From contig JBEKNI010000012.1 in NCBI GenBank assembly GCA_049522975.1, positions 29,920-93,919 of the forward strand: a stretch of 64,000 nt of DNA, written 5' to 3'. Within the stretch, counting starts at the first letter, position 1. Each line of letters starts with the position of its first letter. Below the pieces are notes generated by a model that was not told the origin of the DNA, did no database searches, and saw only the letters and a list, made by a program, of their open reading frames with translations. Below are positions 1 through 30,139 of the stretch, one piece after another. This stretch comes from Terracidiphilus sp. (GTDB taxonomy: Bacteria; Acidobacteriota; Terriglobia; Terriglobales; Acidobacteriaceae). A program made the position numbers and the translations under genes.

Positions 1-20
1 GGTGCCCCTCAATCCTGTCT

Positions 21-74
21 GTCATCCTGAGCGGAGTTTGGCGTGTTCTTTGCGACAAACGGAGTCGAAGGACC
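21..74. repeat. REP-like palindromic repeat, family A (GTCATCCTGAGC...GAAGGACC)
   Basis: Shorter copy with the same ends at 33142-33177; both intergenic. Confidence 0.7.
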
Positions 75-85
75 CGCTTCTCGTA

Positions 86-132
86 GGGTGCCCCACCCTC
101 GCGACGTTCTTGTTTTTGTCGCTAGGGTGGGA
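86..132. repeat. REP-like hairpin repeat, family B (GGGTGCCCC-led)
   Basis: GGGTG + CCCACCCT..AGGGTGGG stem; same layout at 33066-33113; related GGGTGCCCC hairpins at 24220-24660, 26566-26600, 27392-27428, 33018-33051. Confidence 0.7.
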
Positions 133-144
133 TACAGGGCTCCC

Positions 145-182
145 AAAAACAAAACGGCCCGAATCCTCTCCGGACCGGGCCG
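145..182 (-). terminator. Intrinsic terminator (candidate attenuator terminator)
   Basis: Minus-strand RNA: CGGCCCG/CGGGCCG 7-bp stem extended by G-U and UCC/GGA pairs, followed by UUUUGUUUUU. Confidence 0.8.
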
Positions 183-205
183 CCTGACTTCAAGATCGGT
201 TGCGT

Positions 206-304
206 CTAGCGCATCTGCCTCTCAGGAACCAAACGGACGGGTCCGTAGACCATACACATGCACATGGCCATGACCGCAATTCCGGATTCCCTTGAGTTCC
301 TCAT
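206..304 (-). CDS. Putative Met/Cys-rich leader peptide MRNSRESGIAVMAMCMCMVYGPVRLVPERQMR (alternative start at 271 gives 21 aa)
   Basis: Translated by hand (below the ORF-track cutoff); M-A-M-C-M-C-M run; stop lies 23 nt before the terminator; promoter directly upstream. Confidence 0.55.
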   Translation of the reverse strand: MRNSRESGIAVMAMCMCMVYGPVRLVPERQMR

Positions 305-311
305 TGTTAGC

Positions 312-341
312 AGTATTCACGGTAGGCGGGGCAAATGTCAA
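312..341 (-). promoter_or_regulatory. Sigma70-type promoter TTGACA-N18-AATACT
   Basis: Perfect -35 at 336-341, 4/6 -10 at 312-317; predicted TSS near 305, adjacent to ATG 304. Confidence 0.5.
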
Positions 342-383
342 ACAAAAACCGAAGCCGCGACGCCCCGAAAGCATATTCTTGGT

Positions 384-971
384 ATGAAGATGGCAATACA
401 AATACCCAAAAATCTCTATCCCAACCTGCTGACCGGCTGGAAGTTCCTCCTATCCTTCCGCAAGACGAATTGGTCGCTGGAGGACTACCCCATCCTCCTC
501 AGCAAACAAGGCAATTCCAGTCAGCGCTTGGGCGAAACGGGGCGATGGACTCTCCCCGCCTATAGTGCCCGCATTGTGAACTGGGCTCTGAGCGGCTCCG
601 GCGACACCGCCGAGGAGGCGATGAACAGCCTCGCGAAGGCATTCAATAGCGCCTGCGAGAAACGTCCAGCGATGCCCCGCCCCGGAACCCGCGTCCCGAT
701 TACATTCGCTTCGCAGGAGCGGATTGCGGCGCATTCGGCTTTGACGCAGGAGTTCCTCGAATCCGTGCTGGGACACGGCGAAGCATGGATCTCCGATGAG
801 TCCTCGCTTTGGGACTTCGCGCTGGGGCATTCGCTCGACGATTACTACACCAAGATTCGCTCCCTTTACGGCGTGGATGTCTCCGATATTCCCGGCGGGA
901 ATCTCGCCGAGATACTCGAAAGAATTGCCAAGTCAAAGCAGAAACGAATCGAATCGAGTGGGGAACGCTAG
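384..971 (+). CDS. Hypothetical protein with HicB-like segment
   Basis: ORF 258..971, start moved to MKMAIQ; YSARIVNWALSGSGDTAEEAMNSL resembles the HicB N-terminal fold. Confidence 0.65.
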   Translation: MKMAIQIPKNLYPNLLTGWKFLLSFRKTNWSLEDYPILLSKQGNSSQRLGETGRWTLPAYSARIVNWALSGSGDTAEEAMNSLAKAFNSACEKRPAMPRPGTRVPITFASQERIAAHSALTQEFLESVLGHGEAWISDESSLWDFALGHSLDDYYTKIRSLYGVDVSDIPGGNLAEILERIAKSKQKRIESSGER

Positions 972-1010
972 TCCCTAGTCCCTATTCCCTAGTCCCTAGT
1001 CCCTAGTCCC
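969..1010. repeat. Heptamer tandem repeat (TAGTCCC)x6, one unit TATTCCC
   Basis: Read directly; contains the stop codons of both convergent genes. Confidence 0.95.
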
Positions 1011-1599
1011 TGCCCCACACGTATGCCCCCGCCTGCGGCAGCCCGATATGCGCCAGCACGCGGTAGACAAACTGCCGCGCCATCTCGGTCGAGTCTTGGG
1101 GCAAGTTGTAGAAGGCCGGGATGCACGGGAAGATCACCGCGCCGGCCTCGGCCGCCAGCGTCATATTCCGCAGATGAATGAGATTGAAGGGCGTCTCCCG
1201 CACGCAGAGAATCAGCGGCCGCCGCTCCTTGAGCGTCACGTCCGCCGCCCGCGCAATCAGCGAGTTGGCCAGCCCATGCGCAATCGCCGCCAGCGTGCCC
1301 ATCGAGCAAGGCAGAATAATCATGCCATTCGACGGATAACTTCCCGAAGCAATCGCCGCGCCAATATCGTTGTCGGAGTGCTGCACTGTCTTCTCAGGCG
1401 TCGAGCCGAGCAGCTTTTCCACGAGGTCGTTGCGCCTAGAAACGCCCAGCTCCTCGGCCATCACGCGCAGCGAGTTCTCCGAAGCGACAAAATGAACGCG
1501 CTCCACGCGCTCATCCGCCTCCAGCGCGCGCAGCATCTCGCGCCCAAAGACCGCACCCGATGCGCCGGTGATTGCGAGAGTGAGGTTGAATCGGTCCAT
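1003..1599 (-). CDS. ubiX: Flavin prenyltransferase UbiX
   Basis: AITGASGA, ASGSY, PCSMGTLAAIAHG, LKERRPLILCVRETP motifs. Confidence 0.95.
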   Translation of the reverse strand: MDRFNLTLAITGASGAVFGREMLRALEADERVERVHFVASENSLRVMAEELGVSRRNDLVEKLLGSTPEKTVQHSDNDIGAAIASGSYPSNGMIILPCSMGTLAAIAHGLANSLIARAADVTLKERRPLILCVRETPFNLIHLRNMTLAAEAGAVIFPCIPAFYNLPQDSTEMARQFVYRVLAHIGLPQAGAYVWGRD

Positions 1600-1605
1600 A
1601 GCGAT

Positions 1606-1968
1606 TTAGCGCGCCCTATGCGAAAGCCAAAATACAAGTCCAAGCCAGAATGGCGAACTGGTTAGCAGACATGAGAGCCACAGCCCGAGCCAGAAATGTC
1701 TCTTGGCCCGCGTTCTGGCAAGGACTTCTTCTGTTTGTCTTCCCGCGAGTTCTACAATCCAACCCAACGTGTAACAGACATTTGCCACGAAGCCATAGAA
1801 AAAGATAGTAAGGCCCGTTTCCAACATCGGGGCTCCATCGGCGGAAGGGGCCTTCTGTACGAAATACTCCATTGCAAAAATCGAGGCAATCCCAATCACG
1901 AACAGAATGGCGTTGTAGGGTAACCGGCGAAGCTCCCACCAGCGAATAATCTCCCAACCTGTCACCAA
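1606..1968 (-). CDS. Hypothetical membrane protein
   Basis: 120 aa, three hydrophobic segments, WWELRRLPYN motif. Confidence 0.7.
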   Translation of the reverse strand: MVTGWEIIRWWELRRLPYNAILFVIGIASIFAMEYFVQKAPSADGAPMLETGLTIFFYGFVANVCYTLGWIVELAGRQTEEVLARTRAKRHFWLGLWLSCLLTSSPFWLGLVFWLSHRAR

Positions 1969-2015
1969 CGTCCTCCTATCTACACCTCTTGCTGCCCCAA
2001 GCTGCCGAGGCAGCC

Positions 2016-2640
2016 GCGCCGTAGGCGCAATGGTTATTAGCCCCGCGCTTCAGCGTGGGGTTGTTGACCCTACCCAGACCCCGGAGTCCCGTAGGGACGG
2101 CGCAACCACCGCTCACCCAAACACATAACGCTCATCGTACACGATTCCGCAATTGCGCAAAAGCGCGACAAATTCCTGCTCAAAATCGCGCTTGCGATGA
2201 TGCTCTTCCTGATTCTGAATGTACTCCTTCACCACCTCAATCTGCGAGGGGCTGACGCTGAATGCTCCGTATCCCTCCTGCCAGGAAAATCCCTCTCCCA
2301 TCCACCGGGAAGAGCTTCCTTTGAGCTTCTGAACCGCATGGGCAAGGGAACACGGTGCCGGCAAGTCAAATAACAGATGAACGTGATTAGCCGTTCCGCC
2401 AGCGGCAATGAGCGAAAAGCCCTCGCCGCGCGCAATGCCGCCCAGGTAGGCATAAAGTTCGGCTATGCGGGCGGCAGGGATGAGCGAGCGGCGCTCTTTG
2501 GTGCTGAAGACGCAATGAATCAAATTGCACGCGTACGTGTGGGCCATGATGCACCGTCCCTACAGGACTCCCATCTTATCAATTGCGATCTCCCACCCCA
2601 CGTTGAAACGCGGGGCTAATAACCACTGCGCCTACGGCGC
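2016..2640. mobile_element. REPtron-like element: Y1 transposase flanked by inverted REP doublets
   Basis: 2016-2060 vs reverse complement of 2596-2640 match 42/45; 2083-2104 vs reverse complement of 2550-2571 match 20/22; no tnpB. Confidence 0.8.
2113..2547 (-). CDS. tnpA: IS200/IS605-family (HUH/Y1) transposase
   Basis: HCVFSTKER, HUH motif NHVHLL, WQEGYGAFSVS, catalytic Tyr in EYIQNQ. Confidence 0.92.
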   Translation of the reverse strand: MAHTYACNLIHCVFSTKERRSLIPAARIAELYAYLGGIARGEGFSLIAAGGTANHVHLLFDLPAPCSLAHAVQKLKGSSSRWMGEGFSWQEGYGAFSVSPSQIEVVKEYIQNQEEHHRKRDFEQEFVALLRNCGIVYDERYVFG

Positions 2641-2647
2641 GGATCCT

Positions 2648-3049
2648 CTATTGGACTTCGCCGCTGTTTTCCTTCCACCCCTCCAGCATCTTCGAGTATT
2701 CGTCCGAATGCCCAATAGCCAGAAACCGCTTCATCTCCTCGAATGCCAGATCGCGTTCTCCCGCGCTCCAGAGTATCCGAAACAGCAGCAGCGAAACCCT
2801 CTCCGACGCAGGCTCCAATCGCACAGCCAAGCGCCCCTCTTCAATCGCCTCGCGATGCCGCCCGCCGCGCGACAGAACCCAGCCCAAATAACTGTGGCCA
2901 AGCGCCAGCCCTGGAAACTCCTCCACCACCGCCGTCAGAATCTGCGTGGCAAAATCCGAGTCGCCGTTCTCATCCGACTCCACTGCCTGACGGATCACTT
3001 CCATCAGCCGCCGTAGATCGTCCTCTTCGAGTTGGTTCATCCGCGTCAC
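2648..3049 (-). CDS. TPR-like hypothetical protein
   Basis: 133 aa, helical TPR-like pattern (HSYLGWVLSRGGRHREAI); overlaps the purB stop. Confidence 0.65.
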   Translation of the reverse strand: MTRMNQLEEDDLRRLMEVIRQAVESDENGDSDFATQILTAVVEEFPGLALGHSYLGWVLSRGGRHREAIEEGRLAVRLEPASERVSLLLFRILWSAGERDLAFEEMKRFLAIGHSDEYSKMLEGWKENSGEVQ

Positions 3050-6234: not shown

Positions 6235-7349
6235 GGCTTTAATGGTAGCGCCGCAGGCTGCTGCTGGGTCATGCAGTGCAGTGTACCCAAACCCCAGACC
6301 AAATCGACAGAGTGAATGCCTATGAATTCGCGGCCCGGAAATACCTCCGCCAGAATCTTCAGCGCCACGCGGTCGTTGGGATCGTGGAAGGTGGGAACCA
6401 GCACGAGTTCGTTAGCAATATAGAAGTTGGCATAGCTCGCCGGCAGCCGTTGGCCGCTAAAAACCACCGGCCTGGGCAGCGGTAACTCGACTATGTCAAA
6501 TTGCTTTCCGTCGAGCGTGCGAGCGGCCTTGAGCCGGACGAGGTTCTCGGACAGCGGCGCATGGTTGGGGTCGCTTGTATCCGGCTCGACGGCGGCGACG
6601 ATGGTCGTGGGTGCAACGAAACGCGCGATGTCGTCGATGTGGCCATGCGTGTCGTCTCCGGCGATGCCGCGATTGAACCAAATCACCTGATCGATGCCAA
6701 GATAGTCGTGAAAGGCCCGCTCAAGTTGCGCGCGGCTGACGCCGGGATTGCGCTCTTGCACCTCGCTGAGCAGACACTCCTCTGTGGTGAGCATAATCCC
6801 CGCGCCGTTGGTGTCGATGGAGCCGCCTTCCAGCACCAGCCGCTGCCGAAAGCCGTCCGCCAACTCGACTTCAGGCTGCCACTCGGGCAGGCCAAGCAGC
6901 CCGGCCACGCGCCCCGGAACCTGGTCGTCCAGCCGCCAGTCATCGTATTTGGCCCAGCCGTTGAAGCGCCAGTTGGTAATAGCTACCCTGCCCTCGCTGT
7001 TACGAACAAAGATCGGCCCCGAGTCGCGCATCCAACTGCGGTCGGTGGGCCACAGGTGGAAACTCACACGGTCGAGATTCGCTCCCGCCCGCTCTAGGAT
7101 TCCGCGCACGCGCCGCTCGGCCTTCGCGTCCTCGACCAGAAGATGCACTAATTCCCGCGCGGCCAGCAGGCGCAGAATCTCCGCGTAGAGCCACGGGATT
7201 GCCTGAAACTTACCCGGCCAGTCCTCAGGATTGTGCGGCCAAGCAAGCCAGGTAGCTTCGTGCGGCTCCCACTCGGCGGGCATGTGGTAGCCCCGCTCAC
7301 ACGGCGTAGCTGTTGGTGCAAAAGAGGCAGCCCCCTCAAAACTATTCAT
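6231..7349 (-). CDS. aguA: Agmatine deiminase
   Basis: MPAEWEPH, WMRDSGP, LEGGSID, DDTHGHIDD, GLGTLHCMTQQ. Confidence 0.95.
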   Translation of the reverse strand: MNSFEGAASFAPTATPCERGYHMPAEWEPHEATWLAWPHNPEDWPGKFQAIPWLYAEILRLLAARELVHLLVEDAKAERRVRGILERAGANLDRVSFHLWPTDRSWMRDSGPIFVRNSEGRVAITNWRFNGWAKYDDWRLDDQVPGRVAGLLGLPEWQPEVELADGFRQRLVLEGGSIDTNGAGIMLTTEECLLSEVQERNPGVSRAQLERAFHDYLGIDQVIWFNRGIAGDDTHGHIDDIARFVAPTTIVAAVEPDTSDPNHAPLSENLVRLKAARTLDGKQFDIVELPLPRPVVFSGQRLPASYANFYIANELVLVPTFHDPNDRVALKILAEVFPGREFIGIHSVDLVWGLGTLHCMTQQQPAALPLKP

Positions 7350-7359
7350 CTTTGAGCCT

Positions 7360-7956
7360 TCATCCTTTGCGAAACGACTGCTCCATCTGAATCATGACGG
7401 GCATAGCTGGATTGCGTACAACATCGAATCCCATTCGCTGGAGCTCATCCAAGATCCGTTGAGCCTCAATGCACTTCAATCCCGTAAGACATGTGATCTT
7501 CTTACCCTTCGCAATGAATCCCAAAGATGCAGGACTGAACAGAGGCTCCGCGGCTATATATTGAATTCGCCTGATATCTTCTTTCGCAAAAGATCGAGTA
7601 AGTTTCGCCTTTCCCCAACGCATATGGGTCAAACGAATTGATTCCCCAGTGCATTGCAGATCAATTACCATTGGGTAAAGCACCCGCAAAGCCCAGATCA
7701 GCGGGCAGGCAGCCCAAAAGAACGTGAAAGCTAAATCCCAAGCACCAGTAGTCCCTCGCCACATCAGTGCAAAACTCTCAACAAGCAGAACACAAGTTAA
7801 AGCTATGCCGAAGGAGAGAATCAAGGCCCGTTTCCTTCTTCTGCGCGGATCATAGGCCGTTACATCCCTCTTCACAATCAACTCGTCTGGCTTCACCGTG
7901 ATGCGGAATCCCCAGGAAGCCAGCGTCTCGCTCGTATCGGTTTCCACACTTGCCAA
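7360..7956 (-). CDS. Hypothetical membrane protein
   Basis: 198 aa, two TM segments, AT-richer than the flanking agu genes. Confidence 0.65.
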   Translation of the reverse strand: MASVETDTSETLASWGFRITVKPDELIVKRDVTAYDPRRRRKRALILSFGIALTCVLLVESFALMWRGTTGAWDLAFTFFWAACPLIWALRVLYPMVIDLQCTGESIRLTHMRWGKAKLTRSFAKEDIRRIQYIAAEPLFSPASLGFIAKGKKITCLTGLKCIEAQRILDELQRMGFDVVRNPAMPVMIQMEQSFRKG

Positions 7957-29713: not shown

Positions 29714-30139
29714 ATGCGCCAAACATTTCTTTCACGATCAGTAGTTATCACCGTGCTATTTCTCATCGTGACGTCCACTTGTCGGGCAAACTGGATTTGT
29801 TGCGAGGGTGATGAATGGCTGAGATGGGATGCACAGACACGTAGTGTCTACGTTCGCGCATATACATGGGGCTATTCCGAAGGCTATACCAGCGGCTGCC
29901 ACAATGGCCTAGTAGCGTCCAAACCTGAAATGAACGGATCTTATACAATGGAGGCCTCAAAGCGGTGTTCCGAAAGCGCGTCGGTCACGAGTCGAGATTC
30001 GTCCCATTTCGCCGACCGGATCACGGAGTTTTATCAAAAATATCCGCAACAGAGGTTTTTGAGAATATCAGATATTCTCTTAGGTTTGTATGCGGGGAAG
30101 ACGCTTGAAGAAATACATAACAGCTTTCCGAAGAAATAA
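29714..30139 (+). CDS. Hypothetical exported protein
   Basis: AGGAG RBS, signal peptide, low GC. Confidence 0.65.
   Translation: MRQTFLSRSVVITVLFLIVTSTCRANWICCEGDEWLRWDAQTRSVYVRAYTWGYSEGYTSGCHNGLVASKPEMNGSYTMEASKRCSESASVTSRDSSHFADRITEFYQKYPQQRFLRISDILLGLYAGKTLEEIHNSFPKK

Follow-up and report, generated by a model that had tools for sequence, protein, structure and literature searches.

A probable leader-peptide attenuator of the metY–metX operon in Terracidiphilus and related Acidobacteriaceae

What is a 32-codon open reading frame (ORF) rich in methionine and cysteine codons doing between a promoter and an intrinsic terminator, at the edge of a stretch of Terracidiphilus DNA beyond which the next gene of the same strand lies? 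The stretch analysed here, called the window, comprises 64,000 nucleotides (nt), positions 29920–93919 of contig C12 in a 4.59-Mb assembly (genome G000), and the element in question occupies positions 145–341 on its minus strand. The original prediction took the element for an attenuator that responds to the sulfur amino acids and controls a gene to the left of the window. Methionine biosynthesis is, in the textbooks, regulated by S-adenosylmethionine (SAM) riboswitches, by T-boxes or by protein repressors (MetJ, MetR and McbR). Leader peptides are known to attenuate operons for Trp, His, Leu, Thr, Phe and Ile/Val, and for Cys there is translational control by leader ORFs. The analysis described here makes it probable that the element is a ribosome-mediated (leader-peptide) transcription attenuator of the metY–metX operon, specific for Met and probably also for Cys. 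It also goes beyond the original prediction in finding the system spread over several genera of the Acidobacteriaceae.

Coordinates are given as window positions on the minus strand unless stated otherwise, and RNA nucleotides are numbered from the AUG of the short ORF (sORF), window position being 305 minus nt. The promoter proposed earlier, TTGACA-N18-AATACT at 341–312, is present as described, with the –35 hexamer at 336–341 and the –10 hexamer, GATACT in most relatives, at 312–317. A promoter scan found it to be the sole sigma-70-like match in window 1–1200, where shuffled sequences gave a mean of 0.4 matches. The ATG of the sORF (304–302) stands 7 nt past the –10 box, and the message is probably leaderless, with the 5' AUG at or next to the transcription start. 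The ORF runs from 304 to 206 and has 32 codons and a UAG stop; its product would be MRNSRESGIAVMAMCMCMVYGPVRLVPERQMR (32 aa). The predicted M-A-M-C-M-C-M core lies at 271–251 (RNA nt 34–54) as the codon run AUG GCC AUG UGC AUG UGU AUG, which places four Met and two Cys codons within seven. The GC stem and U-tract announced for 145–182 are also there. A terminator scan alone reports a stem at 177–155 plus TTTTGTTTTT, and the full fold extends this to a stem-loop at 185–152 (dG –23.2 kcal/mol) followed by the U-tract GUUUUGUUUUU at 155–145, so that the intrinsic terminator as a whole occupies 145–185.

The element is single-copy in the source genome. Among 4000 random windows of 480 nt from the same genome, an ORF of 15–45 codons with at least four Met/Cys in seven codons occurred in 31, at least five in 3 and at least six in none, and in no case was an ORF with at least four Met/Cys located behind a promoter. 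A genome-wide scan for leader peptides ahead of terminators (His, Trp and Leu runs) returned only noise besides this element.

The next gene on the minus strand was expected to belong to Met or Cys metabolism, and it does. The start codon of metY lies 51 nt beyond the left edge of the window (ORF at 7870..6569 of locus L009), and metX follows directly behind. The metY product matches Cys_Met_Meta_PP and the homocysteine synthase equivalog NF006096 of NCBIfam (744 bits against a cut-off of 726), as well as the O-acetylhomoserine/O-acetylserine (OAH/OAS) sulfhydrylase subfamily (TIGR01326), and metX encodes a homoserine O-acetyltransferase (NF001209, 378 bits against a cut-off of 331). The sORF, whose translation is predicted, is thus a short ORF that opens the leader of a biosynthetic operon, and the terminator stands between it and the first structural gene. 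The start of metY is ~195 nt past the terminator in the source genome, and the rest of its 5' untranslated region fills window 1–144. Two dispersed families of palindromic repeats resembling repetitive extragenic palindromes (REP-like; window ~17–77 and ~86–135; ~40 genome copies) have settled there, which explains why sORF and metY are 355 nt apart here against 224–339 nt in relatives.

Conservation was first a matter of the genus. A blastn search found the element in 32 of the 36 genomes of the genus, a single copy in each, and in none of the neighbouring family. Thirty same-genus loci were fetched and aligned with MAFFT, blind to structure, and in all 30 the element precedes metY. A promoter of the form TTGAC-N-GATACT, followed after 6–7 nt by ATG, is found in 29 of them; the remaining locus (L016) falls outside the promoter pattern and has the same layout by eye. 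Read from the promoter-proximal ATG, the sORF has 30–36 codons in 27 of the 30 loci, and most end in ..ER.MR-stop. The common length differences inside it are in frame (+6, +12 and –6 nt), and the ATG is always in frame with the codon run. In the three shorter sORFs (L014, L029 and L036) a new stop codon or a frameshift of 1 nt past region 2 (the segment, defined below, that takes part in two of the folds) truncates the frame, from which it follows that the C-terminal residues of the leader peptide are dispensable. Within the peptide the core V-M-A-M-C-M-C-M is near-invariant, and the first two Met codons and the first Cys codon of the run are kept in nearly all 30 sequences. The two Cys codons of the run alternate between UGC and UGU, the adjoining AUG codons being fixed. 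Between the final AUG of the run and GGACCC there are 6 nt, whether the sORF has 30, 32 or 34 codons.

What the rest of the leader is conserved for becomes clear from its folds. RNAalifold on the full alignment returns short helices only, because three folds compete, and sub-windows that mimic the states of the ribosome were therefore folded separately. They resolve three long, conserved and mutually exclusive structures: a hairpin 1:2, an antiterminator 2:3 and the terminator 3:4. The original prediction had the last two as alternatives and missed the first, the long 1:2 ‘protector’ hairpin. In this hairpin region 1 (272–296, RNA nt 9–33) pairs with nt 60–86, and the Met/Cys run sits at the apex. 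Its dG is –32.2 kcal/mol here (fold of nt 1–96) and –29 to –43 in relatives. On the structure-blind alignment its 30 pairs have 82% of cells paired, against at most 48% in slid controls, and 14 pairs (25 cells) show compensatory changes, a level reached in 0 of 500 shuffles.

The 3' strand of the protector hairpin belongs to region 2 (219–249, RNA nt 56–86, codons 19–29 of the sORF), which is at the same time the 5' strand of the antiterminator. Its partner is region 3 (167–200, RNA nt 105–138). Pairing between CGGACC at 245–240 and GGUCCG at 176–171 had been proposed and is real, but its extent was underestimated: rather than 6–7 bp, it is the base of a hairpin of ~80 nt (nt 56–138, window 249–167; dG –34.2 kcal/mol). 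The tip of this hairpin, UGCG-CUAGA-CGCA at 201–213, carries the sORF stop codon in its loop; its three G-C pairs are invariant in all 30 genus sequences, and the loop varies in length. The invariant GCAACCGAUCUUGAAG that follows the stop codon is explained as part of the 3' strand of the antiterminator. For the invariant GCAACCGAU two other partners, the 5' CGGAAUUGCG and the 3' half of the terminator, were considered and rejected on inspection, since the pairing is broken in L011 and in GGAUGCGGG variants; GCAACCGAU too is antiterminator 3' strand. When the 5' part is masked, as by a stalled ribosome, and region 4 (the 3' side of the terminator) is absent, region 3 pairs with region 2 in 30 of 30 sequences. 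On the structure-blind alignment 88% of antiterminator cells are paired, compared with at most 41% in slid controls. Among 88 distinct leaders aligned with a covariance model (CM), an alignment that leans towards the structure as the MAFFT alignment does not, 17 of 26 pairs (85 cells) are compensatory, and 0 of 500 shuffles come up to this on any of five measures. An example is the change of GGACCC/GGGUCC to GGAUCC/GGAUCC in L027, L032 and L037.

The 3' portion of region 3 doubles as the 5' half of the terminator, whose helix is almost invariant (92% of cells paired) and is contained in the full-length minimum-energy fold of 29 of the 30 genus sequences. As judged from these predicted folds, the antiterminator shares a strand with the terminator and is itself pre-empted by the 1:2 hairpin. 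Covariation thus supports both 1:2 and 2:3. Relatives have kept the sORF with its Met/Cys codons, whose conservation the original prediction had named as a test, and they have kept the terminator and the pairing of the antiterminator.

Does the system end with the genus? A CM built from the genus alignment and searched in 301 genomes of the order matched 30 of 32 genomes of the genus itself and gave five weak matches outside it, in four different genera of the family. Each of the five stands immediately upstream of metY and has a leaderless-looking sORF of its own, in which unrelated flanks enclose the same kind of codon run; examples are MSSHFNFVLTMAICMCMHTG..., MLIARHVGSVRRAMCMCMCMRGG... and MKKMSQFGIVCCMCMCMRDG... 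Two further genera are alike in this (MFDVAHNTTMAMCTIIMCMRR... and MNSTIQSTVMCMSMRMQMCIRG...), and altogether the element precedes metY in seven of seven fetched loci from other Acidobacteriaceae genera. Twelve leaders of other genera, unrelated in sequence, were folded, and 11 show the same fold logic; in the 12th the script picked the wrong terminator. Many Acidobacteriaceae genomes are without any close metY, which accounts for the gaps of the CM search in this family. The CM search gave no convincing element in the other family of the order, and two distant metY homologs from that family (54–55% identity) have no such sORF upstream.

A census by metY gives a broader view. It covers 138 distinct metY upstream regions, 108 of them from close orthologs (at least 76.9% metY identity; mostly Acidobacteriaceae where a record title or kinship label gives the lineage) and 30 from more distant ones (Blastocatellia, Firmicutes, Chloroflexi and others). 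An sORF with at least four Met/Cys in seven codons occurs in 94 of the 108 close regions and one with at least five in 77, the figures for the 30 distant regions being five and two. In 83 of the 94 sORFs of the close group the AUG lies 4–9 nt past the –10 box of a promoter with TTGAC, as expected for leaderless mRNA, and a hairpin and U-run follow 88. The 94 sORFs encode 93 distinct peptides, with medians of 32 aa, four Met (start excluded) and three Cys. Between genera the flanks of the peptide diverge completely, and the M-x-M-C-M-type run alone persists, with A, C, S, R, Q, P, H, G or W at its widely varying x positions. A peptide that keeps its regulatory codons and exchanges its other residues bears the mark of a leader peptide.

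Some Acidobacteriaceae lineages have a Cys-only leader ORF upstream of metY (..ARCC(C)TR.., e.g. ..ARCCCTR..), of ~30 codons and with its ATG 6–7 nt past the –10 box. Short ORFs rich in Cys and Met are also seen upstream of metY in single contigs of Gemmatimonadales, Acidimicrobiia and Wenzhouxiangella (the loci of the Cys-only ORFs and of these contigs are L085, L086, L096 and L109, and L133, L135, L144 and L153). With the Cys-only variants, these contigs suggest that sulfur-codon leader ORFs upstream of metY are maybe much more widespread.

Is the leader transcribed? Most public runs in which this stretch is found are peat or soil metagenomes; a few are metatranscriptomes, in the form of assembled contigs without ends or usable depth. 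One exact metatranscriptome contig of 116 nt covers window 86–201, across the terminator, and another exact contig of 136 nt lies inside metY. For relatives, metatranscriptome contigs link the end of the sORF and the terminator to the start of metY. The leader is thus transcribed and read-through molecules exist, although the contigs say nothing quantitative. In peat metatranscriptomes the REP-like repeats between the terminator and metY collect a very large summed depth of contigs, to which many organisms probably contribute.

How the parts could work together follows the classical scheme. The first nucleotide transcribed would be the A of the sORF's AUG or a neighbor of it, and a ribosome would translate the resulting leaderless mRNA at once. 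This start site, the stalling of the ribosome and the response to Met/Cys supply are what we infer from the sequences. With Met-tRNA and Cys-tRNA abundant, the ribosome would pass the codon run, open region 2 and finish at the stop codon in the apical loop. Region 3 would then be free to pair with region 4, and a transcript of ~155 nt would end at the U-tract. If charged Met-tRNA, and probably Cys-tRNA, were short, the ribosome would stall on the alternating Met/Cys codons of RNA nt 34–54. With one of the first three Met codons or a Cys codon in the A site it would cover about nt 22–60, and hence region 1 rather than region 2. Region 2 could then pair with region 3 as it emerged, and the antiterminator (about –34 kcal/mol) would keep the terminator from forming and let the polymerase read into metY–metX. 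Were the leader not translated at all, region 1 would pair with region 2 (about –32 kcal/mol) and the terminator would form, a state of superattenuation.

Several points weigh against this account. With the last AUG of the run in its A site, the ribosome would already reach over part of the 5' end of region 2. Even when the 5' part is masked, the terminator-containing fold (–42.1 kcal/mol) is more stable at equilibrium than the antiterminator alone (–34.2), which means that the switch must be kinetic, that is co-transcriptional, as it is in classical attenuators. Six of the 30 genus sequences (L027, L032 and L036–L039) have no good U-tract after the stem, and termination in these members may be weak or factor-assisted. 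Met starvation should lower fMet-tRNA as well, which would hamper initiation on a leaderless message and favor superattenuation, the wrong direction. How Met codons could sense Met starvation on a leaderless mRNA that itself needs fMet-tRNA is a question that the element raises. Lastly, the role of the Cys codons is not obvious. MetY does not seem to be needed for cysteine because the genome has its own cysK and cysE, adjacent on contig C59, upstream of which a Cys/Met sORF was looked for and none was found. Perhaps the Cys codons report the general sulfur supply, or perhaps they are connected with an OAS sulfhydrylase side activity, to which the TIGR01326 match points; a partly structural role is also conceivable.

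Four other explanations were weighed against attenuation by charged-tRNA supply. The one that survives best, improbable as we judge it, keeps the same three-hairpin switch and has it driven by the nascent peptide. M-x-M-C-M would then be an arrest module that reads a small molecule such as SAM, methionine or homocysteine in the ribosome tunnel. It is a peptide motif and not a plain homopolymer that is conserved, alternating M-x-M-C-M through 93 distinct peptides, and the downstream G-P-V-R and E-R-x-M-R residues are kept within the genus as well. However, the residues past the run lie in regions 2 and 3, where RNA pairing already explains their conservation, and they are not kept in other genera; the x positions vary as widely as described above. 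A biosynthetic operon would moreover need arrest at low metabolite, the opposite of the known metabolite-induced arrests. In the boldest form of this reading, equally improbable, the released ~155-nt RNA and the peptide would act in trans as well; if true, it would give bacteria a counterpart to the sensing of metabolites by nascent peptides in methionine biosynthesis.

Next, and about as improbable, comes a general sensor of translation stress in the manner of the upstream ORFs of ermC, whiB7 and topAI, to which the Met/Cys codons would have no amino-acid-specific meaning. Any stall within RNA nt 34–54 would indeed free region 2, and the Met/Cys codons are few when set beside, for example, the seven His codons of hisL. 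A stress sensor does not explain why the element is found only upstream of metY and in single copy, nor why the enrichment is specific to two sulfur amino acids and outlasts a complete turnover of the other residues.

An undescribed metabolite-binding riboswitch, for SAM for instance, that controlled the terminator and made the ORF incidental is very unlikely. SAM riboswitches do control metY/metX operons in many phyla (Xanthomonas: PMC6230763). In the leader, Rfam gave no match at E up to 10, whether in window 1–3000 or in a 421-nt slice, and nothing at the gathering score over 20 loci. The SAM riboswitches (RF00162, RF00521 and relatives) and the T-box have no match to the leader at E up to 10. 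SAM-I (RF00162) was absent from the whole 4.59-Mb genome in a search whose positive controls worked. In the corresponding genome-wide search for SAM-II (RF00521) the positive controls were silent, leaving too little to read, so that for this family the leader itself, without a match at E up to 10, is the informative case. The Rfam His, Leu, Thr, Trp and Phe leader families have no match in window 145–341 either; the sole Leu_leader match (E 0.91) is at 1980–2066 and unrelated to the element. The conserved nucleotides are all explained by three simple competing hairpins, with no conserved core of internal loops or junctions, and leaders of other genera keep the codon run and the hairpin logic and not the sequence. 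The frame, start and length of the ORF are conserved as well.

Least probable of all is an independent small gene, for a Met/Cys-rich micropeptide or a small RNA, that merely neighbors metY: the element is a complete promoter–ORF–terminator unit of ~155 nt, and attenuator RNAs and leader peptides can act in trans, as rnTrpL and peTrpL of Sinorhizobium do (PMC7298713), but linkage to metY is strict at more than 100 loci (same strand and orientation, within 200–355 nt), the peptide outside the run is not conserved between genera, and the conserved antiterminator would be purposeless in a stand-alone gene. A role in trans in addition to attenuation could exist.

Other features of the source genome deserve brief mention. 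Just upstream of the –35 box of the leader is a second terminator-like hairpin (368–349, minus strand), where there is no minus-strand gene to terminate. Next to the leader promoter a divergent ORF of 195 aa (384–971, plus strand; MKMAIQIPKNLY...) has no Pfam match. Where this ORF and a convergent ubiX-like gene (1599..1003, minus strand) end, there is a tandem heptamer (GGGACTA)n with about six copies on the minus strand (window 968–1010), and a similar GGGACC-type repeat encodes the odd ..GTKGPENEGTKGPENEGTKGP.. tail of a lysyl-tRNA-synthetase-like ORF 7 kb to the left. Two inverted matches to the Acido-Lenti-1 RNA (RF01687), at 2015–2060 (minus strand) and 2596–2641 (plus strand), score 37.6 and 34.8 bits, the gathering score being 37. 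Between them lies an IS200-like transposase ORF (2113–2547), and for this reason the Rfam ‘sRNA’ motif looks like the terminal hairpins of an IS200/REPtron element.

A promoter-anchored scan of the genome yielded one further candidate, a poorly conserved Cys-rich sORF on contig C31. It is probably leaderless (locus L155, ~3135–2965, minus strand), has the product MSKNSQRTMACALCCCICACTGCPLAGAGKADR and is followed by a GC hairpin and a T-run. Downstream come an IS200-type tnpA insertion, a gene for a ThiS/SAMP1-like sulfur carrier and a ThiF/MoeZ-like gene. Of 24 relatives in the genus, a single one shares the sORF at the DNA level. A possible role is that of an attenuator by which cysteine controls a protein-thiocarboxylate pathway.

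How does the metY leader compare with known systems? It is closest to the classical attenuators, which include trpL, hisL, leuL, thrL, pheL and ilvL of E. coli and Salmonella, the trp and ilvB leaders of Actinobacteria (PMC1262725) and the hisS leader of Firmicutes (PMC2965389). It shares with them a short ORF rich in codons for the end product, an intrinsic terminator ahead of the first structural gene and exclusive 1:2, 2:3 and 3:4 hairpins between which the position of the ribosome decides. It differs in that Met codons are interleaved with Cys codons, and in that an alternating M-x-M-C-M at the apex of 1:2 takes the place of a homopolymer run. The mRNA is apparently leaderless, the antiterminator is unusually long (~80 nt) with the stop codon in its apical loop, and the host phylum is the Acidobacteriota.

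SAM riboswitches (SAM-I/S-box, SAM-II and others) and Met T-boxes serve the same genes and likewise choose between terminator and antiterminator in the 5' leader. In these an RNA aptamer or specifier recognizes SAM or uncharged tRNA directly, whereas the proposed sensor here is a translated ORF. A family-wide Met/Cys attenuator would show sulfur amino acid control without the SAM-I riboswitch in an abundant but little-studied soil phylum. It would also serve as a compact part (~160 nt) where control by Met/Cys is wanted, and as a rule for annotating dozens of sORFs that at present have no annotation.

The leaderless polycysteine sORFs of mycobacteria (Ms5788A and the Cys regulon; 10.1101/834739) are similar in being short leaderless ORFs at the 5' end of sulfur-metabolism operons, with Cys codons as the presumed sensors of charged tRNA. 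Canestrari et al. found that they act on translation, the Cys tract pairing with the Shine–Dalgarno region of the next gene, and excluded termination experimentally (10.1101/834739). The Acidobacteriaceae leader, by contrast, has a conserved antiterminator and intrinsic terminator, upstream of metY by more than 60 nt, and its Met codons prevail over Cys codons that do not stand in a row. It is accordingly not a member of the mycobacterial class, which is marked by a consecutive Cys run that sequesters the Shine–Dalgarno region and by the lack of a terminator.

Earlier surveys have come near to this ground. Seliverstov et al. (2005) saw no RNA structures upstream of Met operons in Actinobacteria and described leader ORFs with Cys codons and no terminators (PMC1262725), and according to Naville and Gautheret the predicted attenuators of Acidobacteria are essentially unannotated (PMC2965389). 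Searches of full texts brought up no account of a leader-peptide attenuator that serves methionine genes, senses by Met codons interleaved with Cys or occurs in Acidobacteria. A Met/Cys attenuator common to the family would add an amino-acid specificity to a classic mechanism. The metY leader is therefore classed as classical in mechanism and new in its amino-acid specificity, its leaderless start, its architecture and its phylum.

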